Positions 2,864 to 61,420 of a DNA stretch of 61,640 bases are shown one piece after another. Numbering within the stretch: position 1 is the first letter of the stretch; the number at the start of each line of letters is the position of its first letter. Position numbers and translations under genes: made by a program. Source of the DNA: a virus (taxonomy: Duplodnaviria; Caudoviricetes); IMG/VR virus record IMGVR_UViG_3300002703_000110, positions 1-61,640 of that record; one strand, given 5' to 3'. The notes beneath the pieces are model-generated. The model saw only the letters and a list, made by a program, of their open reading frames with translations, was not told where the DNA came from and did no database searches.

Positions 2864-3172
2864 TCACTTTTCATTTTTCTCATTATCCTTTATTTTGTTA
2901 TTTCTGCCTTGCCGTAGTTTCTCAATATGTTCTGGCTTCAATACGCGACGCGGTGCTTTGTTTTTATTATAAGGCATAAAAGGATGTAATGGACATTCTT
3001 TGCACCCACAATCCCCCGCACCATCATCATATTCAGACATACATATATAACAATATGCCTTAATCGCCGCAGATGCAGGGATTTTATTACCTTTCTTAAA
3101 TTCAAGATATTCTTTGCGTCCCTGATGGCGTTTACCGCGTCCAATTTCTGGCTCACTTTTCTTCGGTGGCAT
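2864..3172 (-). CDS. Zn-binding hypothetical protein
   Basis: AIKAYCYICM...C...CPLHPF motif seen in many viral proteins. Confidence 0.55.
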   Translation of the reverse strand: MPPKKSEPEIGRGKRHQGRKEYLEFKKGNKIPASAAIKAYCYICMSEYDDGAGDCGCKECPLHPFMPYNKNKAPRRVLKPEHIEKLRQGRNNKIKDNEKNEK

Positions 3173-3422
3173 TGTGTTTCCTCTGTGTTGTTTTATGTCT
3201 AAAAAGATTAATCATCTGTGTTGCTAAAAATTCTGCTGGGCACCCACAACGGTGCCAAGTAAATCCAAGATTAATACATTCACCGTCTTCATCTTCTCTA
3301 TAATCATACGCCATTAATTTATATTTATTTACACTTAATGGATCTGTAGAACCCTCAACACGCTGCGCGGATAAAACAACAAGTGGCGTATTATTTATCT
3401 GAATTTTTATAATAAGTGACAT
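3153..3422 (-). CDS. Hypothetical protein
   Basis: 89-aa ORF in operon context. Confidence 0.5.
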   Translation of the reverse strand: MSLIIKIQINNTPLVVLSAQRVEGSTDPLSVNKYKLMAYDYREDEDGECINLGFTWHRCGCPAEFLATQMINLFRHKTTQRKHNATEEK

Positions 3423-3737
3423 TATGCACCAAATATTTTATCCTGACATTTCTGGCACAGACCACCAACTCTATATTCTCTGTATGATAATTCATCTCTA
3501 AATTCGCCAACTTTACATTTACAAAGAGGGCAGCGGCCTTCATTTATAAGTTTCATAGCAGCAAAAAATTCTTTTGTCATAATATTACCTCAAAATTAAT
3601 GAGAATATAATGCCAAACATTAACCCACCAACAAAACAAAGAATACGATGTAACCATATCCATTCATTTGAAACAATATAAGAATTTTTAGATGATTGAT
3701 CTCCATCCTGATATGGAACTACTTCTAATTCAATCAT

Positions 3738-5938: not shown

Positions 5939-6334
5939 TTAAATCAACTCCATCATCTGTTTATTCATTTTATCACATATTCCAATATATTTGTTTGTTC
6001 TAGGAACATTTTTAAATGTTACAGTCATTCCTGCGTTTTTTACTATTTCTTTTGCGGTGGAATATATTTCTTTTAATACAGCATCTTTAACTGCATATTC
6101 TCCATTCATTTGCTTAACAACAATTTCAGAATCAGAAAACAATGTGCATTTCCGTGAAACATTCATTATTGCCATAACAACAGCCATATATTCAGCCTGA
6201 TTATTAGTAAGACCATTTTTTATTAATGGAAAAGAATGAATATATTGAAGACACCCCCCATCAACCACTAAAAAGGTTGCCGCACCCTTTCCAGTTCCAA
6301 CCCTGCATCCACCATCAGTATAAACTTCAAGCAA
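5939..6334 (-). CDS. rnhA: Ribonuclease HI (archaeal/RVT_3 type)
   Basis: YTDGG, TNNQAEY, FSDSEIVVKQMNGEYAVK, VPRT.N...CD motifs. Confidence 0.9.
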   Translation of the reverse strand: MLEVYTDGGCRVGTGKGAATFLVVDGGCLQYIHSFPLIKNGLTNNQAEYMAVVMAIMNVSRKCTLFSDSEIVVKQMNGEYAVKDAVLKEIYSTAKEIVKNAGMTVTFKNVPRTNKYIGICDKMNKQMMELI

Positions 6335-6564
6335 ACCTATCGCCCGCTGTTCGTATTTTAATCATTCGTTCTTTCTCATCACTGTTTGCCACAATCGCAG
6401 CATAATCATTCAAAATTTTCTGAATATTATCACCGCCAAATGCCAAACACATAGCAATAATCCGTGCAGATTCTTTGTATAATACACCGTTAACATCGCT
6501 GTTGTTCCGATACTTTTCTTCAAATTTCATTACTTTTTCCATTGTTGTATTTTCTATTGTCATT

Positions 6565-6930
6565 TTACACCTCAAATGTGGCAATCGGGGTAGGAATGCT
6601 CGAAATATAATCTTTTACAATTTTACAGTGTTTTACCAGCACATTTTTGAAATATGCAAAGTTTACAGGGTAATGATCTTTGTTCGATAATTTTACAGTA
6701 TGTGATTTTCCGTTCAATGTAAATGTAATATCATACGTAAACAATGAACCACCCTGATATACAAGTTCAGCATTAAATAGATTTTTTAAAATAATATATG
6801 AGATAATGGCATGACCATAAATTATATCACCATTAACCAAAGACCTTGTAGATACTTCGGTTACAAGTTCATCACCAACCACTACTTCAAAATCATACAC
6901 CGAATTATACCTAAAAACTTCAATCTTCAT
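6565..6930 (-). CDS. Hypothetical protein
   Basis: 121-aa ORF with GGTGA RBS. Confidence 0.5.
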   Translation of the reverse strand: MKIEVFRYNSVYDFEVVVGDELVTEVSTRSLVNGDIIYGHAIISYIILKNLFNAELVYQGGSLFTYDITFTLNGKSHTVKLSNKDHYPVNFAYFKNVLVKHCKIVKDYISSIPTPIATFEV

Positions 6931-7591
6931 AAATTCACCTTATTTTTAATAGTTTCACAATACATCTTCATCATTATGTGATTTTCATAAACCATACCAA
7001 GAGTTATAATATCATTACTACAATAATATGTTAAAGCATCTCTTAACCTCACACATTCAACACACTGGTCTTCAATCATCTAAATCCCTTATATATTTCT
7101 GCAAAGCATTCAAATATATTTTTTTTCTGAAAAAATCATTCACTTCAGAAAAAATATACTCCAGCGGAAAAGATCCAAATAATTTTTCAATACTCTGTCT
7201 GAAAGTTTCCTCATTTACATATTTATTTTCATAATATTTATAATCAGAAAATAACTGCGTTTCAAATGTTGTCAGTTCTCCATGTTCAATCCCACTAACA
7301 ATATCATCAATTTCTGATTGTAATTCATGTGCTTTCTGTATTAGAAAGTCTTTTATTTCTTGAATGTTGTCTTCCATATTCAATTCCAACCCCCGATAAT
7401 TTAAATCTTGTAGGAACACCATTAATTGATTTATCAGTAATTATCATCTCTTGCTTGAGAAGACTTTTAAGAGTTGCGATATTAATTTTTTTTGCCCTGA
7501 CATACCATAGTTGTTGTTGCTCGCCACCATTCTCTTCAAATAATTTGATAATTATGCTATGTTGTATTGGTGTCATAATTATGTATTTGTT

Positions 7592-7957
7592 TTATTGGTT
7601 TAAATATGTTTCTCTTTGTGATGCCAAATAGTCATTAAAACTCTTCATGCTGTATTTTATTTTTAATTCATCACATAAATATATTACAAAACAATTATCG
7701 CCCGCTTGGATAATAGCTGCATGTGCGTATTTACAAGCAAATTCTTCGAGTATTTCAAGATATTCTTCGTCGTTAATGTAAATTTTATCATCTGGTATAT
7801 TAAATTTAGCATGTTGGGCTGCTTTTCGTATAAGTATATATAAACACCCCAAATTTTTATCATACAAACTACATTTTATACAACTGCGTTTTGATACGCA
7901 CAATGGATAATATTTTAATAAAATTTTTATATCATTGTGAAGCATAATCATCACCAA
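7592..7957 (-). CDS. Cys-rich hypothetical protein
   Basis: C-x5-C-x2-C-x8-C motif. Confidence 0.55.
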   Translation of the reverse strand: MVMIMLHNDIKILLKYYPLCVSKRSCIKCSLYDKNLGCLYILIRKAAQHAKFNIPDDKIYINDEEYLEILEEFACKYAHAAIIQAGDNCFVIYLCDELKIKYSMKSFNDYLASQRETYLNQ

Positions 7958-8324: not shown

Positions 8325-9147
8325 TTTTCATATACTCAATTGGCTCTGTGCAATTAATAGTATTAAAAGAGGGAAAAACAAAAGTCTTCTTATGAATTTT
8401 ATATAAAAGTTCTATATGATCGTCTGTTGGTCTGCCATACCCATATCCCCAATCACTACTAACGGGGAGTGTTTCAAGAACTTTGAAATAAAATCTTCGC
8501 AGCATACTTGAATGAATGAGTGGAAATGCAATGCGCTTTATAGAAATTGGCTCCGTGCTGTCTTTAATTTTGGTGATATAAAGTGTCTGTTCATTATAAT
8601 TTTTTGCCAATTCTGCAACATGTAAATTACACCTGTAACCAGCCATTTCCAACTGATTAATATAATTTACAATTACAACACCACGGCGATTAATTTCTGC
8701 CTGTGAAGTTCCACAACTTGCAGAGCAATTGGATACAATGTCAACAATTTTAAATTTCTTTGGATGCATCTCGGCATTATGCATTGTATCAGGTCTACCA
8801 ACTAAAAGGTGGGGAATACATGGGGTAAATCCAACAAGATCAGTGCGGGGAGTAAAGCGCCGATTCTGAATTTCTTCATCGACATCACGATCACGAAGGT
8901 TTTCTGCCAATTTCTTAAAACCCTCTTCCCACCCATCAGTTATAAGTTTTTCAGCATCTTCATAAGTTCTAGTGCCATACCAAGACTTATCATTTGTGCA
9001 CTGTGAACTACTATACGAAGCCATAGACGATGAATTTGGAGTATTTTTACAATACCGCACAAGTTCAACAATATTGTCAAATTTTACAAAAAATGTTTTC
9101 TTATCTTTCTCTTCGACCCAAATTTTCATTTTTCTATCTCCTAGCAA
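8281..9147 (-). CDS. vWA-like partner of MoxR AAA+ ATPase
   Basis: NCSAS degenerate MIDAS-like motif, HSSMLRR, GYG; lies just downstream of the AAA+ gene. Confidence 0.65.
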   Translation of the reverse strand: MLGDRKMKIWVEEKDKKTFFVKFDNIVELVRYCKNTPNSSSMASYSSSQCTNDKSWYGTRTYEDAEKLITDGWEEGFKKLAENLRDRDVDEEIQNRRFTPRTDLVGFTPCIPHLLVGRPDTMHNAEMHPKKFKIVDIVSNCSASCGTSQAEINRRGVVIVNYINQLEMAGYRCNLHVAELAKNYNEQTLYITKIKDSTEPISIKRIAFPLIHSSMLRRFYFKVLETLPVSSDWGYGYGRPTDDHIELLYKIHKKTFVFPSFNTINCTEPIEYMKNVKEWNKKYDNTEK

Positions 9148-9410
9148 ACATCTTGCCGTTCTTCTTCAACAATTGCCTGTGTTAGTTCATACACAACAAT
9201 CTCGCAGCCGGAATAATATTCTGGTGTTTTATCTATATAAATATATTTCTTGGTTTCAAAATCATATTTACAACGGTCTTTAAATTGATTAAGATGATTT
9301 TTAAAGTGTCCAATTTGATTCCATGTTTTGCCCGTTTTACTCCATTTAGGCACCATGCCACCTGTAGAAAAAAGCCCATCGGATTTTCTGCGAATTTTAT
9401 AAATTTTCAT
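9141..9410 (-). CDS. Hypothetical protein
   Basis: GLFSTGG..PKWSKTGKTW pattern typical of small phage proteins. Confidence 0.55.
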   Translation of the reverse strand: MKIYKIRRKSDGLFSTGGMVPKWSKTGKTWNQIGHFKNHLNQFKDRCKYDFETKKYIYIDKTPEYYSGCEIVVYELTQAIVEEERQDVC

Positions 9411-9412
9411 AA

Positions 9413-10597
9413 TTACACCATTACTTCTGCCAGTGCTTTGAGATATTTATTATGATTATTCTCAATTTTCGGCTTAATAATATTCATATCATCAACATGC
9501 ATTCCCTTCAGAATAACATATCGCATAACATCGGCAACTGGAAGGTTTTTGACGGTATGAAGTTTTGTAATCTGATTAATGGCACGATAAGACAGAATAA
9601 TTTTAATTCCCGCCTCTTCGGTAATTTTGCGCAGGGCATGAATTGCGTCAACCAGTTCAACATCACCATTTGCGATAATGCGCTCAACCTGCTCATCATA
9701 TGTTATATCAACAACAGCAAAACGGTCAAGGCTCGCACCATCTAATTGATAACGCCCTACATATGTCTGATTAGCACCACTCCCGAAAGTATTGCCCGCC
9801 GCAATGATCCTAAACTCTGGATGCGCGTCAAATTTGCCATGTGGGAAATTAAAGTATTTATTTTCAATTGCCGCATTAAGAAGGACAAGCACCTCTGGAA
9901 TAGATGCATCAATCTCATCAAAGAAGAACAGCCCACCTTTCGTGAATGCATCAAAAAACTGCGTGGTGTGGAAGTTGCCATTCGCATCAATAAAACCAGT
10001 CACTTTGTATTCATTTGTGATTGCATTTGAGAAATAAAAATCCAAGTCAAGCGCATCGGCAATCTGTTTTACCATATGATTTTTACCACAGCCCGCTTCT
10101 CCACGAAGAAAAACAGGAACATCGGCAGTCACCATTGTTACAATATCGGGGAATTTTTCGTGGGTTATTTCTTTAATTTTCTTGGGAGATTTACCCTCTT
10201 TTTCAATTGTGATAATTCTTTTTGGAATTTCGCCAAATTCTGCCGTTAATTCGTCAACAACACGCTTTTTTGCGAGTGTAATCTGTGTTTCTGCTTCGTT
10301 GGCGATGGCTTTAATATCACCACCAACACTGTCTTTTATATCTTTTACAGATTTATTTACAAACTGTGTTACCATCTTGTTAACAATTTTTTGAACCTTT
10401 ACTTTGTCAATTTTAACTTCTGCCGTATTAGTAGACTGTTCAACAACAATGGTATCGTCATTTGTCATATCACAGTTTTCACAATAAACCTTACGTGCTG
10501 GACGATCCCATTTAACAACACTACCTCTCGCAATAGTCTTCCCGCATTTGCCACACTTCGTATCGAATTTTGAAATAATCTCAATTAAATCAGCCAT
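9413..10597 (-). CDS. MoxR/CbbQ-like AAA+ ATPase with N-terminal Zn finger
   Basis: Walker A GEAGCGKN, Walker B FFFDEID, AAGNT.G.G, LDRF; N-terminal CGKC...CENC. Confidence 0.85.
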   Translation of the reverse strand: MADLIEIISKFDTKCGKCGKTIARGSVVKWDRPARKVYCENCDMTNDDTIVVEQSTNTAEVKIDKVKVQKIVNKMVTQFVNKSVKDIKDSVGGDIKAIANEAETQITLAKKRVVDELTAEFGEIPKRIITIEKEGKSPKKIKEITHEKFPDIVTMVTADVPVFLRGEAGCGKNHMVKQIADALDLDFYFSNAITNEYKVTGFIDANGNFHTTQFFDAFTKGGLFFFDEIDASIPEVLVLLNAAIENKYFNFPHGKFDAHPEFRIIAAGNTFGSGANQTYVGRYQLDGASLDRFAVVDITYDEQVERIIANGDVELVDAIHALRKITEEAGIKIILSYRAINQITKLHTVKNLPVADVMRYVILKGMHVDDMNIIKPKIENNHNKYLKALAEVMV

Positions 10598-12980: not shown

Positions 12981-13688
12981 TTATAATTCCTCCAATTTTC
13001 CATTCTCAATTTTCACTTGATCCGATTTAATCATTTCATAAACTACAAAATGCTTATCACCGGGTGAATAGCACTTCATACACTCACGGCATTTGCCCGC
13101 ACAATTCGGCTTTTCATCAATAGCCTTAAACCATTTATAAGTGCACACATTGAACACACCGTCAAAACCTTTTGGTGCTATGGTTTGCGGAGCATCAATA
13201 TTGGGGTTTGAATATATTTTGGTAATATAATTATTATCAATTAATTTTGCAGCACTAATCTTTTTACTCCACATTGTGATTGGAAAATCAGACTTTTTGC
13301 CTTTAATATACATTGCGATTAAATTTAAATTTTCGCAATGAATATCGTTTATTAATTCACCCATTGAATTAAATCTTAACCCAATTGCCCGTTTTAAAAT
13401 ATAATCTCCAATCTGCTCAATTTCATGCACCGTTAACACGCGGGATGAAAGCGTATTGTAATTTTCCATGAGCGCACTTTTCAGTCGTGGATAGCGCGTG
13501 CTCATATAATATGCATAACAATGTTTGCAGATATTATCTGTTTTTCTCATCCCTGCGCAAAATGGATTAGAAATTATATCTACATTAATAGATAAAAATC
13601 CACCCATTTTTAAAGTGAGTTTATGTTCCGTCAAATTTATGTTGCCGATTTTAACCATTTCAACCAACTCTCTTTTATACACGCTCAT
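12981..13688 (-). CDS. GP88-like (radical-SAM-related) Cys-rich protein
   Basis: FC.....C..CYA, RFNSMGE, C-terminal C...C..C..CY. Confidence 0.6.
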   Translation of the reverse strand: MSVYKRELVEMVKIGNINLTEHKLTLKMGGFLSINVDIISNPFCAGMRKTDNICKHCYAYYMSTRYPRLKSALMENYNTLSSRVLTVHEIEQIGDYILKRAIGLRFNSMGELINDIHCENLNLIAMYIKGKKSDFPITMWSKKISAAKLIDNNYITKIYSNPNIDAPQTIAPKGFDGVFNVCTYKWFKAIDEKPNCAGKCRECMKCYSPGDKHFVVYEMIKSDQVKIENGKLEEL

Positions 13689-13903
13689 GTGGCACGCATT
13701 TTATTTGCGACCTCATAAATTTTATTTCAAGTGGGGTAAAAAATTTAGTCGTTTCTAAATTATAGATAATTTCTGTATATCTTTCCCTGTTATTTTCGCG
13801 CTTTATAAATGTGCCGTATGGAGATAAAAATTGCATATTCATTATCATTCGTTCTATCCGTGATAATGCTTTAATTATTATATATGTGTGTAAATTTGAC
13901 ATT

Positions 13904-14308
13904 TCACTTCTCCAGATTAGCCATAATTGCGGTGTGTATTCCGCTATCTTTGCAATCGCAGGCATTTGAATACATAAGTCTTTCAATAACAGAACCAATA
14001 TTTTTATCAGTCCAATTATTTTGTGGTGTTAAATTCTCACCATTCTGTTTAATGGTGCATGAGGGATTTAGTTTAAAGCACTCATCAAAAAAGTATCCGT
14101 AAACATGCCAACACGCGGCGTTTACCCGCTGACCTGAAAACCCAATCCTTGATCCGAGCGCTCTTGAATCCTTGACCTTGAGGGTAACAATATACCTGTT
14201 TCCGGTTTTTTCAAGCCTTTTAAAAGCAATATTATTATTAAAAACTTTATTTGTGTTCAAAAGTGCATTCTCAATATTTTCCCGTGTTAATCCAGTAATA
14301 TAAACCAT
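13904..14308 (-). CDS. Hypothetical early protein
   Basis: ACWHVYG.FF...W.D.NIGS...CDC motifs; GGAGG RBS. Confidence 0.6.
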   Translation of the reverse strand: MVYITGLTRENIENALLNTNKVFNNNIAFKRLEKTGNRYIVTLKVKDSRALGSRIGFSGQRVNAACWHVYGYFFDECFKLNPSCTIKQNGENLTPQNNWTDKNIGSVIERLMYSNACDCKDSGIHTAIMANLEK

Positions 14309-14648
14309 TTTATTCCTCCAGTCTTTTTAATGCCTCTTTGCATATATCATATATTTGGCACGGAATACATCCAGTGTGTTTATACTTTTCTGAAGTATAA
14401 TATTTACAGTTTTCCACATTGCACGCCTCATCCCCACTGTGTGGTGGACATTTAAAAAGATCCGTATAGAGAATCTCATTCTTTAAAAGTCTCATTGCGG
14501 CAATAAGTTGATCGTTGCTCATTTTTTAAAACTCCTTTAATGCACGTCATACCACAGTGCGCGATATGACTTTATGCCAAAAAGAATAATAATAATAGCC
14601 TGCGCTGTCAATTGTAATATATTTCTCTGAAAAAATATCTGGCTCCAT

Positions 14649-14813
14649 TTAATCAGACCCGTGGAAAATATCTGTATAAATGTCATCAATCATAGAGTTT
14701 AATTTACCCAATGGGCACGGCACTGTGTGATAAAATTTACAGCCTTCACAGTTTCCTTCTTGGCATTCACAATACCTTCTGATTTTTTTGTATCGTAATT
14801 CACATTGTTTCAT
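14649..14813 (-). CDS. Small Cys-rich protein (below ORF-track cutoff)
   Basis: Manually translated: MKQCELRYKKIRRYCECQEGNCEGCKFYHTVPCPL... Confidence 0.5.
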   Translation of the reverse strand: MKQCELRYKKIRRYCECQEGNCEGCKFYHTVPCPLGKLNSMIDDIYTDIFHGSD

Positions 14814-15014
14814 GTATTCCATTTAAATCACCTACATTGTGAACGGCACTTCAATCTCCATCCCTGCACGGGCTGTCATAATATGAGTGCTTATTTCACC
14901 AGCGGAATAAATGCGTCCCGTGTCAGCATCATTATTATACTCATCGAACTCAACATAATAACCATTGTCATAATAAACATTGGTTATGTTCCCAAAAATG
15001 GTTTTAACCTTCAT

Positions 15015-15299
15015 TTAAATCACCATTGAAGCAGAAACACACTTGTTTTCATTGTCGGTTTGAACAATAATTCTTTTTGTCCTGATCATTGTTGAGGCTG
15101 TATAAAAATTGCCGATAAATTGCCCATTTTTATACAGTGCGATAAGAATTTCTTTATCATTAAACGGAAGTGTTATAATTTCTTTTTCTTCGTTTGTTTG
15201 CATATTCCATACTGATATTTTAATAATTTTGTTTGATGAATGAATGCTTATGATTGTCCGTTCCCGCTTCTCATTTCGTGGTTCAAATTCATAGACCAT
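15015..15299 (-). CDS. Hypothetical protein, first gene of the leftward run
   Basis: 94-aa ORF with GGAG RBS. Confidence 0.5.
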   Translation of the reverse strand: MVYEFEPRNEKRERTIISIHSSNKIIKISVWNMQTNEEKEIITLPFNDKEILIALYKNGQFIGNFYTASTMIRTKRIIVQTDNENKCVSASMVI

Positions 15300-15420
15300 T
15301 TTCTAACTCCGCTTTGTGCACGTCCTAGTCCGCCACGGGCTAGAACTTTTCGCCAAAAGGAATTTTGGGATTATGGGGATTTTTCACCTTATCTTAAAGA
15401 GCATTCGCACGATAAGGATA

Positions 15421-15428
15421 TATTTAAG
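15421..15428 (+). promoter_or_regulatory. Possible TATA box for a plus-strand non-coding transcript
   Basis: TATTTAAG preceded by purine-rich GATAAGGATA, upstream of the structured region. Confidence 0.3.
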
Positions 15429-15439
15429 CGCCATAATCG

Positions 15440-16170
15440 GTTATTCATAAATCATGATTGTGTTATATTAGTTCATAACCAATCCAACACACCATCTTAT
15501 GGTTTTTCGTTGTTAACTACTAGACCCAATGGTGTTACTGTTATCCCTTTATTGCAGGACTAGACAAAACAACACATAAGCGTTTTTGCACATTGATTTG
15601 TGCGAGTATTTTTTTTGTTCTTTAAATCCCCCTACTTCTCCATATAGAAGGTTCGGGCTATCTGTCAACAAAAAATTCCCAAGAACTTAAAGAAGTTCAT
15701 CGCAGGGTTAACTTTCTGATATCCGGGACAAAACCTCAAACAACCAAAAAGATCCGCACAATACATGAATCCATCTAGCCAAGAACTTTTAGGATAATGA
15801 TAAGGATCAACCTTATCTTAATCCCCAAATTTCCTATAACATCATCGATGCTTTGTGCGGCACGTTCTTATTGTTCTGTTTGGTTTAGACCTGATCTTTC
15901 AGGTTTGTTAATTTTGCTTATAGGGATGATAAGAAAACCTGTCTTCAGATTGTAGTTGTCTACGGTCCGAAGTATGGTGTCTTATGTGCTCTCTTGCCAA
16001 TTGTCTCTCATCAGTGCTTTTTTGGTATAGTGACTTTAGCACTGGGCACATCAAATTATCTTATCCACTTCCGGCAGGGTAGCCAATCACAACCCACCGA
16101 AAAGACTTATAGATGTCTTCTCATCTGTGCTCTTGTGGTTATTGTGCGCAGGAGGGTTTTTCTCCCTTCT
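15440..16170 (+). ncRNA. Candidate large structured non-coding RNA (boundaries approximate)
   Basis: No credible ORF; several mutually nested long-range helices plus many local hairpins; G-U wobbles favour the plus strand. Confidence 0.5.
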
Positions 16171-16203
16171 CACCCAATCCATATACTATCTAGGACTCAT
16201 AAG

Positions 16204-16211
16204 TATATAAA
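16204..16211 (-). promoter_or_regulatory. Archaeal TATA box, leftward promoter
   Basis: Minus strand reads CCGACAGG-TTTATATA-CTTATGAG. Confidence 0.55.
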
Positions 16212-17533
16212 CCTGTCGGTTTGTTCTTTTGAGGGTCTAGGAACTGCAATTATTAGATAGTGCAAAAATGAACAGAAATTTTCTCATAGAACATATATGT
16301 ATTAGTACAGGAATTTTATGTACATATATGAGTAATTGGTAGTATAGTGATTTTGTAACTCATTTCCAACATATATATATAAGAAGTTCTTTTTCTTTGT
16401 ACTACTTTCTTTTTCTTCTTTCTTTATGTTACTTTCTTTCTTCTTTTTCTTATTATATATTAATTTTATCTCGTATATAGAGGTTAAAAACCTGCAAAAA
16501 TAACATAAAAAAATAAGTAACTCCCCCCCCACTATACGTATAAATTAAAAAAGTAGTTTTCAAAACATACATACACAGGGCGTAGAATTTGTATGAAAAA
16601 AAATTTCATGCTATACATATAGTTAAACAGAAAGAATTAACTTTTTTTTGCACTTTCAAAAAAGAAGCCCAAATTGAGGTTTTTTATTTTTTAAAATGGG
16701 CTTCGATTCGTAATTAAAGCCCAAAATGAACAGATAATTTTTAAGCATAATGCTGGCTCCAATTGGCTATATCTTCATGCTGTGGGCTTTGTTCATACAA
16801 AATAGACGATAGTGCCCAGACCCGCAAAGTAGCAACTTTATTTCTATTCGTAATACTAAATAATTAGGGGTATCCATCTACTAGTAATTATAAATGGGTA
16901 TGATTCATAATAATTTGTAAATTCGTAGCAACATAGTATATATTTATACAATAATAAATCATGTTGGTTAGTGCTACAAAAAGAAATATAATAACAACAT
17001 TGGTATTACCAAATTGTTTATTTATAATTAAAGGAACAATAATGGATGATCACTATAATACAATAATGGTCATAAATATACATAAGGTATGACATGTGGC
17101 TGACTGGTGGCAGACATAGAGCAGACAAGTGTCTGACGATGAGAAGGGGTTATTTATCGGTATTCAAGGTAGTGTCTGTATAAGTGTAGGGTCAAATTAA
17201 ATGGGCGGGCGATATGAACTTACATATAAAGGTTATCATTTAGATTTTTCAAATATTGCGTAAAGTGCTCTAATTTGAATTTAGACCATAAACTAACTTA
17301 TTTCATTTTGCATATTTAATTAGAATTATAATTAAATTTGAACGGGATGCGAAACACTAATAGTATATATATCTTTTGGTTTAGTTTTTGATAAGTGGCG
17401 AAAAATAAAAATTAAAATATACGTCGGTGATAATAAGCCGCACTCTAGATCAAAAATATCGTCTGACAAAAAATTACGAAAAATAAAAATAAAATACAAA
17501 ATATTTAAATATTATCAAATTAAAATATATATT

Positions 17534-18205
17534 ATGAAATTTTGTAGAATATGTAAAACGATGAAACCAGAAATAGAATTCCACAAAGATGTTAAAGCAC
17601 CAGATGGATTATGCAGAGAATGTAAAAGTTGTAGAATAGACATACAATTAAAATATCACAAAAGAACATATACGCCCAGAAAAAAAAGAACAACGTGTAT
17701 AAAATGTGGTTCTCCAATACAAACTGGAAGATTATGTAATAATTGTAAAAAGCCACCAAAAAAATTATTACCGCCACAAAGGTATTGTAAAACATGTGGG
17801 GGGCCAATTTCAAAGGGATTATCATTTTGTGATGATTGTAAAAAAATAAAAAGAGTTAAATATAACCTAGAGCAACCAAAAACAATAAAAATGTGGGCAC
17901 ATGGGTGTATATCCAACAAAAAACATAATAAAAAATTTAATGTCACATTGACAATAGAAGAGTTAATAATAAAAGCGGAAAATACAAAAGAGTGTCCACT
18001 GTGTGGGTGCAAATTAAATTATACAGAAAAGAGAGGAAAAACGACAGGCTGTTCTCCAACAATAGACAGAATTAATAATGAATCAATAGTTTCAAATGAT
18101 AATATATGGATTTTGTGCCACTCTTGTAATTCCACAAAGAGAAACAGAACACTTCAAGAATTTATTGATTATTGCAAAAAAATTGCTAATTACAAATATA
18201 AGTAA
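17534..18205 (+). CDS. HNH homing-type endonuclease with multiple Zn fingers
   Basis: Several CxxC pairs; CPLCG...SPTIDRIN...NIWILCHSCNSTK. Confidence 0.8.
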   Translation: MKFCRICKTMKPEIEFHKDVKAPDGLCRECKSCRIDIQLKYHKRTYTPRKKRTTCIKCGSPIQTGRLCNNCKKPPKKLLPPQRYCKTCGGPISKGLSFCDDCKKIKRVKYNLEQPKTIKMWAHGCISNKKHNKKFNVTLTIEELIIKAENTKECPLCGCKLNYTEKRGKTTGCSPTIDRINNESIVSNDNIWILCHSCNSTKRNRTLQEFIDYCKKIANYKYK

Positions 18206-18244
18206 AAATATAGATTAAATTTAAATATTTTATAATACAATCCA

Positions 18245-18260
18245 TTTATATATACTCAAA
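18245..18260 (+). promoter_or_regulatory. Putative late promoter
   Basis: TTTATATATACTCAAA, identical copy at 23110..23125. Confidence 0.6.
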
Positions 18261-19443
18261 AAGATAAATAGTAATATGTTAAAGGCAATTATATTTGATG
18301 ATGGGGCAGGTTATGGTGTTCTTATTTTTGAACAAAAATATGAAAAGCAAATAAGTGATATTTTAAATAAACTTACAGAATTTCAATATAGAGTTAATAG
18401 ACCACCAGACACTCCAAGATTCACTGAAGAGTTATTATTGAAGCGACTCTCCGAAACAAATATAGTTTATTCATATATAAAAACAAATAATGAATATGGA
18501 TTTGATTAATTATGGAAAGCAGAGAATTATCTAAACCTCTTATACAAACAGATAAACCGCACACGCTTTGTAGTATTTGTGGGTTGCTTGTTCCTGTAGA
18601 AGAGATTACAATGGAATTTGATGGTATATATACAGACTATAAAAAGAAAGCAATGGGCAAGTGGCATTTTGTGGTTTGCGAACAGTGCAGGCTTCGACTC
18701 AACGAAATCAATAATGGTGGCGAAACGGCGGCACTTATTAAAATGGGAGATGAATACACATGAAACTTTATTTATTTAATTATGACGCATTTTTAAAGAC
18801 AGAAAAGAACTGTAATAAATTCGGCACAGAACTCAAGCGGCGGGACATAACATTATTATCAATTGAATATTATAATGATTTTATGATACTTGACTTTGGT
18901 GACGGCGACCTTTCAGGCCACATAATTAAATACTGTGAGGCTTATTGGGAGGCAGATCCAAAAATGACTATCGAAATATCTGATGTCGATTATCATGGCA
19001 TCGCGTTATCGCTCTTTGAAATTATTGATGATATAGATACGGTGTCCGACATTGCAAAGGGCGATGATAAATTATACAGGCGGCTGGTCAGCCAGCGTGT
19101 TAAAGCCGTGGCAAAATATGTTGAGTGCGATGGTATGAATGTAAAATTTAAGGGTGAATAATATGATGGAAAATACATTAATACATGATAGAATCACAAA
19201 TCGTGCTATGGTTAGATTAGAGGGAAGAAATATACGTGTGTCTTTTGGTCTTACACCAGAAGAGAAAATTCAAATAGTTGCAGAAACTACGGCGGCGATG
19301 TTTAAAAATGAAATTTGATAGTATGAAACTTGCAGTCTTTTTAGATAAACATCGGGGCTGCCAAGGCACATTTAAACTTATGCAGAAAGGAAATTATATT
19401 AAGGTGCGATGCATGGACTGTGGTGAAGTAGAGAATATTACTG

Positions 19444-23109: not shown

Positions 23110-23125
23110 TTTATATATACTCAAA
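23110..23125 (+). promoter_or_regulatory. Putative late promoter upstream of the head genes
   Basis: TTTATATATACTCAAA, identical to 18245..18260. Confidence 0.6.
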
Positions 23126-56354: not shown

Positions 56355-56426
56355 TGCACATAAACAGAATCGGACTGTTGATATCTTCTCTGTAAAAGAA
56401 GCACCTTTCCACTAGGTTATACGTGC
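56355..56426 (-). tRNA. tRNA-Val(TAC)
   Basis: Cloverleaf; anticodon arm CTTCT-TTTACAG-AGAAG. Confidence 0.8.
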
Positions 56427-56444
56427 CATTTTTCAAACTTCATA

Positions 56445-56526
56445 CGTCAGCAGAAGGACTTGAACCTTCGAGAGCAATGCCCCACAGGTTAGCAACCTGC
56501 TACCGTGACCTCTTGGTTATGCTGAC
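56445..56526 (-). tRNA. tRNA-Ser(GCT)
   Basis: GCAGG-TTGCTAA-CCTGT, long variable arm, TTCAAGT T-loop, G73. Confidence 0.9.
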
Positions 56527-56534
56527 AATAATAA

Positions 56535-56608
56535 GGTGGCTGAATTGATTATTCGCGGGTCTAACGATACGTCAACCATTTAACTTCACCCGATTAAATT
56601 GAAGCACC
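56535..56608 (-). ncRNA. Small structured non-tRNA element between tRNAs
   Basis: Terminal GGTGCT/AGCCACC helix, CGGGT/ACCCG helix, inner TTGACG/CGTTAG hairpin. Confidence 0.4.
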
Positions 56609-56614
56609 ACAAAA

Positions 56615-56685
56615 TGGACTATACGGGTAATGCTCCCGTGCTATCGGATTAAAAGTCCGATGTGCTACTATTACACCAATAGTCC
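56615..56685 (-). tRNA. tRNA-Lys(TTT), atypical T-loop
   Basis: TCGGA-CTTTTAA-TCCGA; T-loop AGCATTA. Confidence 0.85.
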
Positions 56686-56690
56686 AAAAA

Positions 56691-57173
56691 TTAAAGTGAT
56701 AAAATATAATTTACCAACTCTTTTGTTTTCTTCAAAGATTCAATTTGTTTATCTAAAGAACAATCTTCATATGATTTTACACAAATCTTAAGTTTAAACT
56801 TTTTTATTACTTCTTCTACTTTATCCTTTGCTATACGAAGTGATATACATCCATCACTTCCGCAAACATCTAAAACATTTGGAATTATATCAAATGTGTA
56901 ATGATAATTACCAGCACAAGAGAGATTTAAAAATTCGTCTTCCCAATCAGATTCATCATCCGCATCACCAAAATACGAGAAATAATAATGAATAGAAGAT
57001 TTAATATCATATTCAAATTTCCATTGGGGTTTTGAAATAAGCCCAGAATCAATAATTAATTGTTGCCTCTCATTTGTTATAAATTCATCTATTTCATTTG
57101 CTTTTTCCCGCAATTTAGAACTTTGATTATAAAGTTCCTTTTTTTGTTTTAGTAACTCATCGAGTTTTGTCAT
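56691..57173 (-). CDS. Hypothetical protein
   Basis: 160-aa ORF downstream of a conserved promoter motif. Confidence 0.55.
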   Translation of the reverse strand: MTKLDELLKQKKELYNQSSKLREKANEIDEFITNERQQLIIDSGLISKPQWKFEYDIKSSIHYYFSYFGDADDESDWEDEFLNLSCAGNYHYTFDIIPNVLDVCGSDGCISLRIAKDKVEEVIKKFKLKICVKSYEDCSLDKQIESLKKTKELVNYILSL

Positions 57174-57198
57174 AACAACTTCCCATTTAGTATTTGTT

Positions 57199-57211
57199 TT
57201 AAAAGTATTTA
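57199..57211 (-). promoter_or_regulatory. Conserved viral promoter core TAAATACTTTTAA
   Basis: Identical 13-mer also at 58635..58647 and 61405..61417, each upstream of a minus-strand gene. Confidence 0.6.
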
Positions 57212-57218
57212 ATACTTA

Positions 57219-57512
57219 CTAACACCACAATAATTCATTAACTTCTTGTTTTAATTCTATAAGTTTTTTTAAACTATCTCCATGACACCGCTTTGGTTTA
57301 CAAAAACAACCAAAACGCCTTGCTTTCATCAGTGGTGATAAATCAAGTTTTGGGATAATATATTTTTCATAAAGATCAATCACACGGTCGCGCTCCGCCA
57401 CTGTGTTATTTTTTATTCTAAAAGGATTTCCCCACGGAGAGCCACGACCAATATAAACATCGCCCTCTTTACCCCAATCTTTACAAGTTTTTAAATTAAT
57501 AACTTTAACCAT
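57219..57512 (-). CDS. DUF4326 family protein
   Basis: DVYIGRGSPWGNPF...GCFCKP..CHGD.L. Confidence 0.85.
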   Translation of the reverse strand: MVKVINLKTCKDWGKEGDVYIGRGSPWGNPFRIKNNTVAERDRVIDLYEKYIIPKLDLSPLMKARRFGCFCKPKRCHGDSLKKLIELKQEVNELLWC

Positions 57513-57513
57513 A

Positions 57514-57584
57514 TACGGTATGTGGGAATTGAACCCACGATCTCTCGTTGGAAGCGAGAAATATTTCCACTATACTAATACCGT
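57514..57584 (-). tRNA. tRNA-Gly(TCC)
   Basis: TCTCG-CTTCCAA-CGAGA; TTCAATT T-loop. Confidence 0.9.
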
Positions 57585-58058
57585 TTATCTGTGGTAGTTA
57601 TATGGTCTACCATTACCATTGTTTTTTGAACCATAGTTTTCAGTAAAAGCATGACAATTTTTACACAACAATTTTAAATTACTTCTTTTATTATTTTTAA
57701 AATTACCATCAATATGATGAACATCCAATGAAATTGATTTGCCCATCCATTCGTGTAATCCGCATTCCTCACACTTATGTTATCTTTCTTGTATTAATAT
57801 TTTTCTTACTGTTTTTGGAGAAACATACATTCCACAATTAAATTTATTAATATTATCTGATTTAATAGATTTTTTATAACAAATTAAACATATTATATTG
57901 TCTGTGTGTCTAGGATTTTTGACAATTGCATTACATACTTTACAATGATAAACTTTCTTTTTTAATTTATTTCTAAAACTTGCAGCACAACTTCTATTAC
58001 AAAAAATATTATGTGGTTTATTTATTATTTCTTTTCCATACTATAAACAGATATTCAT
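57585..58058 (-). pseudogene. Inactivated HNH homing endonuclease
   Basis: One frame: MNICL*YGK...FCNRSC...IQER*HKCEECG...LDVHHIDG...NLKLLCKNCHA; internal TAG and TAA. Confidence 0.85.
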
Positions 58059-58073
58059 TATTATTCTCCAATA

Positions 58074-58144
58074 CGCTTAATGTGGGTAATGCTCCCACTT
58101 CTCATCCGTGACAGGAATGCATACTGCTTCTATACTAATTAAGC
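58074..58144 (-). tRNA. tRNA-Asp(GTC), atypical T-loop
   Basis: CATTC-CTGTCAC-GGATG; T-loop AGCATTA; G73. Confidence 0.85.
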
Positions 58145-58147
58145 AAA

Positions 58148-58220
58148 CGTGCCTAGAGCGACTTGAACGCTCAATCTTTTGGTTCGTAGCCAAACGGATT
58201 ATCCATTTTCCTATAGACAC
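58148..58220 (-). tRNA. tRNA-Arg(ACG)
   Basis: TTTGG-CTACGAA-CCAAA; canonical D and T loops. Confidence 0.9.
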
Positions 58221-58222
58221 CA

Positions 58223-58296
58223 CACTCTTGCGGAGAATTGAACTCCGATTATTTCTGATTAGAAGTCAGATGCCATATCCTTTAGGCGACAAGAGT
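58223..58296 (-). tRNA. tRNA-Arg(TCT)
   Basis: TCTGA-CTTCTAA-TCAGA. Confidence 0.9.
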
Positions 58297-58300
58297 AAAA

Positions 58301-58373
58301 TGCTTCGTGTGGAATTCGCGCCCACGTCGAGGGGTTGAAAGTCTTCCATGATTGACTGCTACACTAATGAAGC
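58301..58373 (-). tRNA. tRNA-Glu(TTC), degenerate or pseudo
   Basis: Acceptor and T stems present; anticodon stem poorly paired around CTTTCAA. Confidence 0.6.
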
Positions 58374-58376
58374 CTA

Positions 58377-58448
58377 TCTCAACAGCAGGAATTGAACCTG
58401 CATCATTTCGATCTACAGTTGAGTGCAAAACCATTATGCTATGTTGAG
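58377..58448 (-). tRNA. tRNA-Tyr(GTA), archaeal type
   Basis: C1:G72, A73, short variable loop; two mismatches in the anticodon stem. Confidence 0.75.
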
Positions 58449-58460
58449 TAATAATAAATT

Positions 58461-58530
58461 TCTGGTGATTCTATGCTTCTCACCAGTTGGCTCTGTAGTC
58501 TAATACAAGACTTCTTCCGCATACCAGAGC
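58461..58530 (-). ncRNA. Small structured non-tRNA element between tRNAs
   Basis: GCTCTG/CAGAGC enclosing AGTCT/AGACT, then CTGGTGA/TCACCAG hairpin. Confidence 0.4.
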
Positions 58531-58533
58531 CAA

Positions 58534-58616
58534 TGTATGGAACAGGATTTGCACCTGTGAACTCCTACGAGAGCGCATCTTAAGTGCGCCGGGTTTTACT
58601 ACTTCCCTATCCATAC
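58534..58616 (-). tRNA. tRNA-Leu(TAA)
   Basis: GCGCA-CTTAAGA-TGCGC, long variable arm, T-loop TGCAAAT. Confidence 0.9.
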
Positions 58617-58620
58617 TCCC

Positions 58621-58650
58621 TATACATATTAGTCTTAAAAGTATTTATAA
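58621..58650 (-). promoter_or_regulatory. Promoter of the tRNA sub-array
   Basis: TTATAAATACTTTTAA....ATATGTATAG, near-identical to 61391..61420. Confidence 0.65.
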
Positions 58651-58658
58651 TTTATCAT

Positions 58659-58979
58659 TTAATTTACTGCTCTTGCTTCTTCTTTAGTAAGACCATATTT
58701 ATAACACATATCCTTAAAAATTTTACCATGTCCATCATATCCTAATTCACGAATACACTTTACATGTATAAGTTCATGCTTTAAAAGACTTATAATTTTA
58801 TTGCATGTTAAATATGCAATTGAATATTTATTAAATTCAATTTTATCACTATAAGCAAGTGCAACTATAACACGATTACCGCAACGTGAATATTTTAATG
58901 GCACTACTTTTGGAACATCCGCAATTTCAAATTCTTTGCACAACTATTCACATATTTTATTTATTTGTTCGTAATTCAT
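58659..58979 (-). pseudogene. SprT-like zinc metalloprotease, interrupted by TAG near the N-terminus (or starting at TTG 58943)
   Basis: HELIH...GHG..F motif; ATG at 58979 is in frame but codon 12 is TAG. Confidence 0.55.
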
Positions 58980-59051
58980 GATGGGATCATCTATTCTCCG
59001 TTTATCTAATGACTTTTCTTCACCAAATATTTTAAAAATATCAATCAACTA

Positions 59052-59122
59052 TGAGGTTATTGTGAATTGAACACAAACTTAATCGTCCCAAACGACCAAT
59101 CATACCGCTAGATCATAACCCC
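59052..59122 (-). tRNA. tRNA-Pro(TGG)
   Basis: GGTCG-TTTGGGA-CGATT. Confidence 0.85.
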
Positions 59123-59126
59123 AAAA

Positions 59127-59199
59127 CGGGCTAGGTAAGGTTCGAACTTACATCCACTTCGTTAACAGCGAAGCGCACCACCAATTGTGCTACCAGCCC
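59127..59199 (-). tRNA. tRNA-Asn(GTT)
   Basis: CTTCG-CTGTTAA-CGAAG; TTCGAAC T-loop. Confidence 0.9.
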
Positions 59200-59433
59200 A
59201 AAAAATTATATAAGTCCTTTTTCTAATCTCCATTTTACATATTTTGACTCATTACTAAACAATAAATTATTTATTGTAATTATATTTAAATCACCACTAT
59301 ATTTATTTGTAATAATTTCACCATCCACATTTTTTATATAAAAATATGCATGATAATTACTACCACGATATTTACGAAAATTACCACCAATGGCTTTTAT
59401 TTTTTTTCTTAATGTTTTCATTGTTATCATAAA

Positions 59434-59507
59434 TTGTAAGTGCTGGACTCGAACCAGCAGTCTTCAGATTATGGGTCTGATGAGATGTCCATTTTCTCCA
59501 ACTCACA
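59434..59507 (-). tRNA. tRNA with CAT anticodon (Met, or Ile2), C33
   Basis: TCAGA-CCCATAA-TCTGA; TTCGAGT T-loop. Confidence 0.8.
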
Positions 59508-59735
59508 GAATATATATGTATGGCAGGGCAACTTTAGAACTATAATAAGCGCAATTCTACCATACACCAACTATACAAATTTCTAACATAATAAATATAT
59601 TCTACTATCAACCTACCGATTCGTAGTCTCAATAAAACATTGCACCACTTTAATAATAAGATGTGGTCATACGGTTGCGCTTACTCCTTGGACGAAGCCA
59701 TTTACTGTAATTTAGACATTGGCGCAATATAATAC

Positions 59736-59817
59736 TACTCGCTCATATTCCGATTGGCCTATCAGATATGACTTGATAATATTTGCAACTATTATCTCGA
59801 ACCCACGGTTACGAGTA
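59736..59817 (-). ncRNA. Four-way-junction tRNA-like RNA
   Basis: TACTCGT/GCGAGTA closing stem with three internal hairpins; begins immediately 3' of tRNA-Thr. Confidence 0.5.
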
Positions 59818-59818
59818 A

Positions 59819-59891
59819 AGCCAGTGACGGGGATCGAACCCGCTATTTCTCGCTTACAAGGCGAGCACCGTGCCATTACGGTTCCACTGGC
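59819..59891 (-). tRNA. tRNA-Thr(TGT)
   Basis: CTCGC-CTTGTAA-GCGAG; U73. Confidence 0.9.
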
Positions 59892-60010
59892 AAAAATTAT
59901 TATAGAGATTATTATTTGAAAACTTCGTAAGGAAACCTCTATAATTTTTTATTTTCTAGTTCTCTACCAAAATTATGAAAAAGAATAGTTTAACGTGTTA
60001 TTCAGCACCA

Positions 60011-60084
60011 TGCGCCATAACGGATTTGCACCGTTGTATCCACCTTTATAAGAAGTGTGCCGTAACTATCTTGGCTAATAGCGC
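60011..60084 (-). tRNA. tRNA-Ile(TAT)
   Basis: CACTT-CTTATAA-AGGTG; T-loop TGCAAAT. Confidence 0.85.
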
Positions 60085-60292
60085 AGAAAAATTTTATCTA
60101 TGATCTACAATCCAATCTCTTATTTCTTGTATCTCTGGGTGCATAGAACCAACTTTGTTTCCATCTTTAACAGTTTTCCAGAACCACACAGTAAATTCTA
60201 CATTTGCATAATTATATCCTCTATAGAAATCTTTGTTTTCAGTCTCAAACACAACTTCTGATGCTTCTTTCAAATCTACCATAATATCACCA

Positions 60293-60364
60293 TGCACGAT
60301 ACTGGACTCGAACCAGCGATCTCTTGCTTATCAGACAAGTGCATTCCCTCTATGCTAATCGTGC
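60293..60364 (-). tRNA. tRNA-Ile(GAT)
   Basis: CTTGT-CTGATAA-GCAAG. Confidence 0.9.
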
Positions 60365-60368
60365 TTAA

Positions 60369-60440
60369 TTCTCCCGGCCAGAGTTGCACTGACATCACCA
60401 GATCCAAAGTCTAGCATGATTACTATTACACTACGGGAGT
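60369..60440 (-). tRNA. tRNA-Gln(TTG)
   Basis: CTAGA-CTTTGGA-TCTGG; T-loop TGCAACT; 1:72 mismatch. Confidence 0.8.
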
Positions 60441-61126: not shown

Positions 61127-61386
61127 AATTCATCCTGTGGAGAATCGAAATCAACCCACACGCGATTGTCTTCTCTAAAAACACTCCAGCGCGTGCTGAT
61201 TACATTAAAAAAATAATCACGATTGCAACCCGAAACCTGTTTGTATTTTTTATAAATATCATTAAGCGGAATTATACCTGAATATTTTGAACAAAATTCA
61301 AATATAGATTGCTGTTTTTGTGTTGGTTTATTTTTTTCATTCACTTCCATCTTAAGTTCCTTCCAAATTTCATTAACTAAAAACAT
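61099..61386 (-). CDS. Hypothetical protein
   Basis: ORF directly downstream of the conserved promoter. Confidence 0.5.
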   Translation of the reverse strand: MFLVNEIWKELKMEVNEKNKPTQKQQSIFEFCSKYSGIIPLNDIYKKYKQVSGCNRDYFFNVISTRWSVFREDNRVWVDFDSPQDELWLALEQTL

Positions 61387-61390
61387 ACTC

Positions 61391-61420
61391 TATACATATA
61401 GGTGTTAAAAGTATTTAAAT
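61391..61420 (-). promoter_or_regulatory. Conserved viral promoter
   Basis: ATTTAAATACTTTTAACACCTATATGTATA, matches 58621..58650. Confidence 0.65.

Follow-up and report, generated by a model that had tools for sequence, protein, structure and literature searches.

The 61,640-bp DNA analysed here (hereafter the window) is the whole of an IMG/VR virus record, rated complete by CheckV. Between a leftward archaeal-type promoter and the first gene of a leftward operon it contains the subject of this report, a stretch of ~880 nucleotides (nt) (15300-16182, minus strand; enclosing 15440-16170). The stretch is free of open reading frames (ORFs), shows excess folding energy, lies behind a conserved promoter motif that points leftward, and has a positional counterpart in a distant relative, the virus G001. 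We regard it as a well-placed candidate RNA that matches no known RNA family, and we tentatively read it as a minus-strand structured leader or non-coding RNA (ncRNA) of the leftward operon, extending from 16182 to 15300, a reading that we rate as a serious possibility, if short of probable. An original prediction, made by a model, had placed a structured RNA of ~700 nt at 15440-16170 on the plus strand.

The gap at 15300-17533 and its leftward promoter

The genes of the window form three blocks, leftward as far as 15299, rightward between 17534 and ~41.2 kilobases (kb), and leftward again beyond that. They encode a large terminase, a protein with a weak portal match, a family-B DNA polymerase, an RNA ligase, an AAA ATPase, an ERCC4-HhH nuclease, a Dam methylase, a PD-(D/E)XK nuclease, and a primase-polymerase helix-bundle domain. 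A census of ORFs of at least 50 amino acids (aa) in block orientation identified 15300-17533 (2234 nt) as the longest ORF-free gap of the genome, the runner-up (535 nt) being located in the transfer RNA (tRNA) zone. To score the ORFs of at least 30 aa inside 15300-16200, we used codon-usage log-odds trained on 45 long genes, with 290 antisense ORFs as a spurious reference class and 85 small sense ORFs as a reference for small true genes. The scores range from -0.165 to +0.027, as compared to -0.107 +/- 0.165 for the spurious class (n=290) and 0.18 +/- 0.13 for small true genes (n=85). In a tblastn search of 9045 stop-to-stop frames from related loci (L002-L063) against 15250-17560 there was no significant match; the best per-query E value, 2.6e-5, is at 17057-17137, outside the stretch, and is not significant given 9045 queries. 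Because the codon scores are those of the spurious class and the frames of relatives find no match, the stretch is non-coding, and we conclude that neither an intact nor a decayed protein gene is recognisable in it. The description of 15440-16170 as an ORF-free stretch in a gene-dense genome is borne out by its location within the 2234-nt gap and by its spurious-class codon scores.

The sequence TTTAWATA occurs in the gap only at 16204 (minus strand), 17502 (minus strand) and 17504 (plus strand). At the first of these positions, where the original prediction had correctly placed a leftward promoter, we find an archaeal-type promoter directed toward the stretch (16205-16219, minus strand): a B recognition element (BRE)-like CGACAGG followed by an 8-bp TATA box, TTTATATA (16205-16212), with an inferred start site at ~16182. 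The flanks of this box, GG/TG before and CTYA after, are the same at the boxes of the block-initial genes 17534, 18276 and 61386, and the same box orientation and flanks are observed at the promoters of the plus-strand genes 18276 and 23184 and at a minus-strand site at 7837. The spacing from TTTAWATA to ATG is 22 nt for box 17504 (HNH endonuclease gene at 17534), 23 nt for box 18245 (gene at 18276) and 25 nt before 61386, and an ATG at 16182 lies 21 nt beyond the box at 16205-16212. A leaderless archaeal-type layout, in which the box has GG/TG and (TA)CTYA as shared preceding and following flanks, is also seen at 17504-17536, 18245-18278, 61386-61419 and 23110-23117. According to a published account, the 8-bp TATA box of archaeal promoters has its centre ~27 nt before the start and is immediately preceded by the BRE (PMC5316973). 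The box-to-ATG geometry in the window appears to be that of archaeal leaderless mRNAs, and the archaeal-type promoters at block-initial genes (TTTAWATA, 21-25 nt, ATG) support the earlier proposal that the virus is archaeal: it appears to infect archaea.

The ATG at 16182 opens a 31-codon ORF (16087-16182, minus strand), at the position expected for a leaderless start. Its codon score, +0.027, is ambiguous; G001 has ATC at the equivalent position and has no counterpart ORF. The 31-codon ORF is probably no conserved gene.

The promoter motif, GACTCnnAAGTATWTAAACCTnnCG, is syntenic in G001 (with an exact 15-mer) and recurs with no more than two changes in L009/L022, L010 and L011/L062. A scan of viral contigs for the motif yielded 11 stretches, five already known and six new from five records (two with identical context); none of the five new records has a terminase relative. 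Near-identical promoter words are present in L081 (provirus record G006), which has 23 of the 25 bases of GACTCATAAGTATATAAACCTGTCG, and in L078, yet neither has a terminase relative of the group; these words fit a shared host-type promoter consensus, or chance.

Folding energy, strand and predicted fold

The folding energy of 15440-16170 beats that of dinucleotide shuffles on both strands, in line with the highly structured element of the original prediction. On the plus strand, the minimum free energy (MFE) is -191.6, versus -158.0 +/- 7.3 for shuffles (z -4.62); on the minus strand, the MFE is -199.8, versus -164.6 +/- 7.5 (z -4.69); and on each strand 0 of 20 shuffles are as good. The excess is present in both halves of the stretch, with z -4.06 for 16182 to 15745 and z -2.91 for 15744 to 15300 on the minus strand (0 of 100 shuffles as good, each), and z -4.52 and -2.46 on the plus strand. 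The right part of the gap (16220-17530), by the same kind of shuffling, gives z -1.58 and -1.09, and the excess structure is therefore specific to the left stretch. Two windows of the genome chosen for low energy give z -2.27 and -4.03. Perfect inverted words in 15440-16170 are near the numbers expected from shuffles (eight 8-mers, versus 5.7 +/- 3.3, with 74 of 300 shuffles reaching 8; 30 7-mers, versus 21.9, with 34 of 300 having as many). Since inverted words are at chance level, the signal resides in the total folding energy. With DNA folding parameters z is -3.3, a value that agrees with the folded single-stranded DNA that the original prediction had offered as an alternative; however, nothing else suggests that this virus, which encodes a terminase and a portal, passes through a single-stranded stage.

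The original prediction had an RNA running antisense to the promoter at 16204. That promoter, which is kept in relatives, points into the stretch, and for this reason the stretch is more likely a minus-strand product. Runs of at least five T number six on the plus strand (including T8 at 15609-15616) versus two on the minus strand, with the same 2-versus-6 distribution in G001; the minus strand shares its purine richness with the sense strands of coding blocks, and its MFE is 12-15 kcal/mol lower than that of the plus strand, in the window and in G001. The T runs, the purine richness and the lower MFE argue weakly for the minus strand. Oligo-T is a termination signal for archaeal RNA polymerase. 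A terminator-like hairpin followed by T8 (15585-15616, plus strand) would, if oligo-T terminates here, be a strong stop for a plus-strand transcript.

As a minus-strand RNA, the proposed 883-nt leader or ncRNA (15300-16182) has an MFE of -250.2 kcal/mol and a predicted fold built on long-range helices. An outer helix set joins 16045-16065 (5' arm) to 15411-15432 (3' arm) in three helix segments, with pairing probabilities (P) of 0.85-0.99; as DNA, the two arms form an imperfect inverted repeat flanking ~655 nt. The main long-range helix joins 15981-15998 (5' arm) to 15563-15580 (3' arm), with P 0.97 for 15998-15992/15569-15563 and P 0.99 for 15990-15981/15580-15571. Within the rest of the fold, a rod-like, imperfect 115-nt hairpin (15750-15864) is closed by CCGCACAA/TTGTGCGG and has GATAAGG/CCTTATC near its apex (z -4.89; 0 of 200 shuffles as good). 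Its closing helix is predicted with P 0.98-1.0 on both strands, and a U5 run (15750-15746) comes next on the minus strand. In the last predicted hairpin (15305-15364), the Shine-Dalgarno sequence GGAG (15310-15307) pairs with AAUUCC (15364-15359), with P 0.97-1.0 in the full fold; as an isolated 75-nt piece this hairpin has an energy of -22.2 kcal/mol (z -2.07; 9 of 200 shuffles as good). The GGAG lies 8 nt before the ATG of the first protein gene of the leftward operon (15015-15299, minus strand; 94 aa; codon score 0.145).

The seven complementary segment pairs on which the original prediction was based (15489-15498/15970-15980, 15515-15520/15952-15957, 15541-15548/15922-15929, 15731-15742/15877-15886, 15754-15761/15853-15860, 15611-15619/15667-15675 and 15573-15580/15981-15988) are all present in the sequence. 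As a class, however, such pairs are at chance, and the plus-strand ensemble favours three of the seven (15541/15922, 15754/15853 and 15611/15667; P 0.7-1.0), leaving the other four at P ~0-0.1. The last pair listed, CACATAAG/CTTATGTG, had been put forward as a possible pseudoknot; its complementarity is real, but the pair belongs to the main long-range helix described above and is a main closing helix of the minus-strand fold (P 0.99). The proposed local hairpins fared better, those at 15585-15606, 15635-15650, 15683-15698, 15799-15817, 15886-15907 and 16108-16129 being in the plus-strand MFE structure with P of at least 0.9.

The counterpart in G001, and searches for homologues

G001 (58,305 bp; terminase 48% identical to that of the window) and the window are collinear to either side of the stretch, with matches between 13128-14312 and 6239-7811 of locus L070, between 16152-16218 and L070 9615-9683, between CTT-rich repeats, and between 17357-17426 and L007 830-941. 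The only block of the stretch similar to G001 is 16152-16218 (minus strand; 74% over 67-69 nt), which comprises the promoter and the first ~30 nt of the predicted transcript. Downstream of the G001 promoter lie 870 nt (L070 8777-9647) in which no ORF is plausible, versus 883 nt in the window; a likely 50-aa gene occupies L070 8624-8776. The G001 stretch has z -5.63 on the plus strand and -5.92 on the minus strand; six other G001 windows range from +0.73 to -1.85. Rfam models gave 0 matches to the G001 counterpart at E<=1, and a search of it against phage records gave none. We conclude that the layout, the length and the foldability of the stretch recur in one independent lineage, that of G001.

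ORF-poor gaps of ~780-840 nt are also present in L009 and L010, further downstream, with z -2.06 (L009) and -3.02 (L010); an identical 22-nt patch is common to these two gaps and is absent from the window and G001. Within the 50% group, L006 has no clear counterpart. G001 carries a direct terminal repeat of 127 nt (L070 10180-10306, L007 1-127), which was not used to place genome ends; 127 nt equals a common maximal assembler k-mer, and the repeat may be a circular-assembly overlap and not a physical end.

Searches with the stretch itself identified no relative and no known family. Rfam 15 covariance models, including riboswitch models and those for GOLLD, ROOL, OLE, group I/II introns, RNase P, SRP and tmRNA, gave no match to the stretch at the gathering score or at E<=10. 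Three weak matches at E<=10 in 15000-17700, all at 16619-16762 and thus outside the stretch, are far below gathering. Across the whole 61.6-kb genome, the only matches at the gathering score are 14 tRNAs at 56.3-60.4 kb, where 15 tRNA genes lie on the minus strand (56355-60440; Val, Ser, Lys, Gly, Arg x2, Tyr, Leu, Pro, Asn, Met, Thr, Ile x2 and Gln); ARAGORN found no transfer-messenger RNA (tmRNA) in the genome. Blastn in distant mode gave no match of 15300-17530 to 50,697 phage records, and blastn gave no match of 15300-16200 to 72,556 plasmid records.

Searches through neighbouring proteins extended the comparison to related loci. The flanking proteins 17534-18205 and 12981-13688 led to no related locus, and the terminase alone, used as query, led to one 79% relative, L002, whose contig extends only 1.4 kb beyond the terminase gene on its upstream side. 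A terminase alignment supplied 38 viral, 22 metagenome and 2 genome loci, among which blastn and nhmmer searches with 15300-16200 gave no significant match, the 78-80% relatives L040, L046 and L048 being too short to reach the stretch. Closer terminase relatives (P0002-P0009, 57-78% identical) exist on contigs of up to 34,969 nt; the copies examined through the Joint Genome Institute (JGI) stop short of the stretch. Five terminase homologues (P0007, P0020, P0066, P0067 and P0072) are longer (589-838 aa) and contain the intein/homing-endonuclease Pfam domains PF14528, PF14890 and PF01079, from which it follows that inteins have entered the terminase lineage.

Ten sequencing runs were listed as containing this sequence, none of them an RNA run, and DNA contigs from four of them (X5, X6, X9 and X10) were compared over 14000-19000. 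Runs X5 and X6, from a second, later study, contain fragments 100% identical to the window. Runs X9 and X10, from marine sediment, contain a relative ~88-94% identical, in which the 75-nt segment 16511-16585 is replaced by 74 other letters. One 183-nt contig spans 15377-15554 (with 20 other letters and 4 gaps), and none of the listed pieces lies over 15555-16400.

Several DNA-level features are present in and near the stretch. The minimum of the cumulative GC skew and the switch of divergent transcription coincide with it. A 41-nt direct repeat has copies at 15357-15397 and 15781-15821 that are 71% identical and end in the same exact 12-mer, ACCTTATCTTAA. Four of the seven CCTTATC sites of the genome fall in 15387-15817, as two inverted pairs. 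The promoter-proximal word AACCTGTC, located at 16210-16217, has a second copy inside the stretch (15936-15943, plus strand), a possible operator; the window has three copies, versus 1.15 expected, and 12 of 100 shuffles reach three. In G001, CCTGTCG occurs four times in 10.3 kb, versus 0.17 expected (0 of 200 shuffles), with three copies in the leader/promoter region, two of which form a perfect 7-bp palindrome.

The right part of the gap (16220-17533), located just upstream of the HNH endonuclease and terminase genes, is AT-rich, with a GC content of 0.21-0.37 per 100 nt. Its tandem arrays are at 16387-16451 and 17317-17503, the former being a CTT-rich 27-nt tandem repeat found also in G001 (L070 10038-10150). 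Repeated GTCTG/CAGAC words lie at ~17094-17190, and a C8 run at 16524-16531. In these respects 16220-17530 resembles an origin or packaging region more than 15300-16200 does, and it may hold a packaging site, an origin, or both.

Candidate readings and comparison with known RNAs

According to the reading that we tentatively prefer, transcription would start near 16182 from the BRE-like CGACAGG and TTTATATA (16219-16205, minus strand), would proceed leftward across 16170-15440, and would continue into the leftward operon, where a Shine-Dalgarno sequence of its own precedes the first gene (15299-15015). We infer the transcription of the stretch, its strand, its end, and every functional step. 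The RNA would fold into the nested long-range helices, the 115-nt rod-like hairpin, and the final hairpin over the Shine-Dalgarno GGAG. Its most likely role would be that of a cis-acting leader gating leftward-gene expression, by partial termination at U5/U6 runs (15750-15746, 15675-15670), which would free RNAs of ~435 or ~510 nt, and also by masking of the ribosome site; a trans-acting role of the released RNA would be possible. If the stretch is a functional RNA, it would show that archaeal tailed viruses devote ~1.5% of a genome with little spare room to a device that acts at the RNA level where an operon begins. It would also provide a concrete, testable example of control by RNA in such a virus, one for which the promoter is defined and both the ends and the mask over the ribosome site are predicted. 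If it is only DNA operators or filler, it is ordinary.

Several observations weigh against a minus-strand leader or ncRNA, and some of them favour other explanations. The sequence of the stretch is not kept: global alignment of 15300-16150 with G001 8611-9612 gives z ~1.9, that is, not alignable, and the two stretches have 27, 4 and 0 8-, 9- and 10-mers in common, versus 21.8, 5.7 and 1.5 in shuffles. With no alignable sequence, position is the sole basis for treating the two stretches as homologous, and this in a single relative; with alignment and word counts near chance, no covariance model was built from G001. In relatives with terminases 43-44% identical to that of the window (L009, L010 and L011), the promoter heads small, leaderless-looking protein genes and not a leader; in L009 and L011 an ATG-started ORF, MQKI... 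(55 and 65 aa), follows the box on the minus strand, at a spacing of 21 nt in L009 (loci L009 7040-7207, L011 7833-8030 and L010 ~3445-3490, all on the minus strand). In two 35% relatives (L083/L084, from a GP88-like alignment search that also gave G001), the divergent gap is only ~450 nt. Because of these small protein genes and this shorter gap, the leader is not general. The Shine-Dalgarno sequence of the first G001 gene is unpaired in the predicted fold, so masking is not common to both viruses. The asymmetries in T runs and purines may merely continue the compositional skew of the left arm. The folding z-scores are equal on both strands, as DNA-level inverted repeats would also give, and folding energy does not separate the strands. 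Finally, one of 20 arbitrary 731-nt genome windows (3001-3731) equals the stretch in z, the 20 ranging from +2.12 to -4.57, and with MFE regressed on GC content the stretch ranks 11 of 205, five of the top 11 windows falling in the gap; the foldability of the stretch is unusual but not unique in the genome. The window at 3001-3731 (z -4.57, from 18 shuffles) includes a 315-nt apparent gap, 3423-3737, that alone has z +0.83 and seems to hold small ORFs.

The lack of sequence conservation with G001, the protein genes at this position in L009-L011, the arbitrary window of equal z and the rank of the folding energy would suit a functionless spacer, consisting of decayed genes or fast-evolving filler, its folding excess being a tail-of-distribution effect. 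We consider this unlikely: two viruses with terminases 48% identical both keep ~870-880 ORF-free nt in gene-packed genomes, each stretch is extreme among the tested windows of its own genome, and tblastn detects no remnant of the relatives' proteins. Somewhat better placed, though still on the unlikely side, is the explanation that the stretch is a DNA-level control region, with operators and perhaps replication or packaging sites for proteins that recognise inverted and direct repeats; the apparent fold would then merely reflect palindromic protein-binding sites, and any transcript would be incidental and unstructured. This explanation accommodates the equal z on both strands and the excess with DNA parameters, the location at the transcription switch and skew minimum, the CCTTATC inverted pairs, the 41-nt repeat with its exact 12-mer, and the recurrence of a promoter-proximal word inside the stretch in both viruses, as a perfect palindrome in G001. 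However, the repeated words span well under 100 of ~880 nt, too few for the whole energy excess, and perfect inverted 8-mers are at chance; the stretch lacks the features of a replication origin, its GC content of 0.39 (15300-16220) exceeding that of most 1-kb genome windows and 15300-16200 having no tandem array; the origin- or packaging-like part of the gap, 16220-17530, folds only averagely (z -1.6, -1.1); and a conserved promoter fires into the stretch. A structured plus-strand RNA of ~700 nt, starting at ~15421-15440 antisense to the leftward promoter, would have the same folding excess (z -4.62; halves -4.52 and -2.46), and two hairpins with T runs could be the 3' ends of shorter plus-strand RNAs. 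We nevertheless find it very improbable: the plus strand has no TTTAWATA box in 15300-16200, and thus none near 15421, where a TATA-like box had been proposed; of its six T runs of at least five, T8 at 15609-15616 lies ~170 nt into the proposed RNA; four of the seven long-range pairs have P ~0-0.1; and the supposed bias of G-T pairs toward the plus strand is absent, G-U pairs making up 29 of 255 pairs on the plus strand and 33 of 277 on the minus strand over 15300-16182. Least probable of all, in our view, is a non-autonomous mobile element of the miniature inverted-repeat transposable element (MITE) or palindrome-associated transposable element (PATE) kind, which would have inserted downstream of the promoter and would give rise to a structured RNA. 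The imperfect inverted repeats 15411-15432/16045-16065 around ~655 nt of structured, non-coding sequence would suit such an element, as would the unrelated sequences at this site in two otherwise collinear viruses, and a precedent is the 489-bp PATE reported from the haloarchaeal tailed virus HRTV-DL1 (PMC10544981). But the element would be present in one copy in the genome and in none of the 50,697 phage or 72,556 plasmid records, no transposase-related gene was found among 30 proteins scanned, and it would take a coincidence for two unrelated insertions of near-equal length to have hit one and the same site.

Among known systems, the PATE of HRTV-DL1 is the source of the only large structured RNA of archaeal tailed viruses that full-text literature searches returned, a PATE-derived ncRNA (PMC10544981). 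A role as an ncRNA has been proposed for this PATE, which the stretch resembles in being structured, non-coding, a few hundred bp in size, and carried by a head-tailed virus of archaea (PMC10544981). Unlike it, the stretch has no second copy in the genome or in the phage or plasmid records, and its context has no IS200/IS605-type gene. Like 5' leaders of the riboswitch or thermometer type that mask a ribosome site, the stretch lies between a promoter and a first gene, and its predicted last hairpin pairs the GGAG; unlike them, it matches no riboswitch model, and the masking is not seen in G001. Known leaders of the riboswitch or thermometer type are, to our knowledge, several times shorter than its ~880 nt. 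The phi29 pRNA is a structured viral RNA of ~170 nt with its own known fold, transcribed from an early promoter in a virus with a family-B DNA polymerase. Like phi29, the virus studied here has a family-B DNA polymerase and, if our reading is correct, a structured virus-encoded RNA, of ~880 nt as opposed to ~170 nt; the two RNAs were compared through the Rfam scan only.

Large structured virus-borne RNAs are known from bacteriophages, and GOLLD and ROOL are phage-associated bacterial RNAs of several hundred nt. The stretch is like GOLLD and ROOL in its several-hundred-nt size class, in being non-coding and virus-borne, and in having many nested helices, which here are predicted. It differs from them in that it has no Rfam match even at E<=10, in that its host appears to be archaeal, and in that it immediately follows the promoter of an operon, as a leader, away from the tRNA genes (here at 56.3-60.4 kb). 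GOLLD and ROOL are families found by conservation, whereas the sequence of the stretch is not kept even between collinear relatives. Large ornate RNAs of this kind are the subject of a cryo-electron microscopy preprint (10.1101/2024.12.08.627333). On the boldest interpretation, which we think doubtful, the stretch and its G001 counterpart would represent a new class of ~0.9-kb, fast-evolving, folded ncRNAs of archaeal tailed viruses, which would be transcribed from a strongly conserved promoter heading a leftward operon, released at U runs as RNAs of ~435-510 nt, and active in trans (to help take over the host, for instance, or to decoy a host defence): a counterpart of the large ornate RNAs of phages, kept by position, length and foldability and not by sequence.

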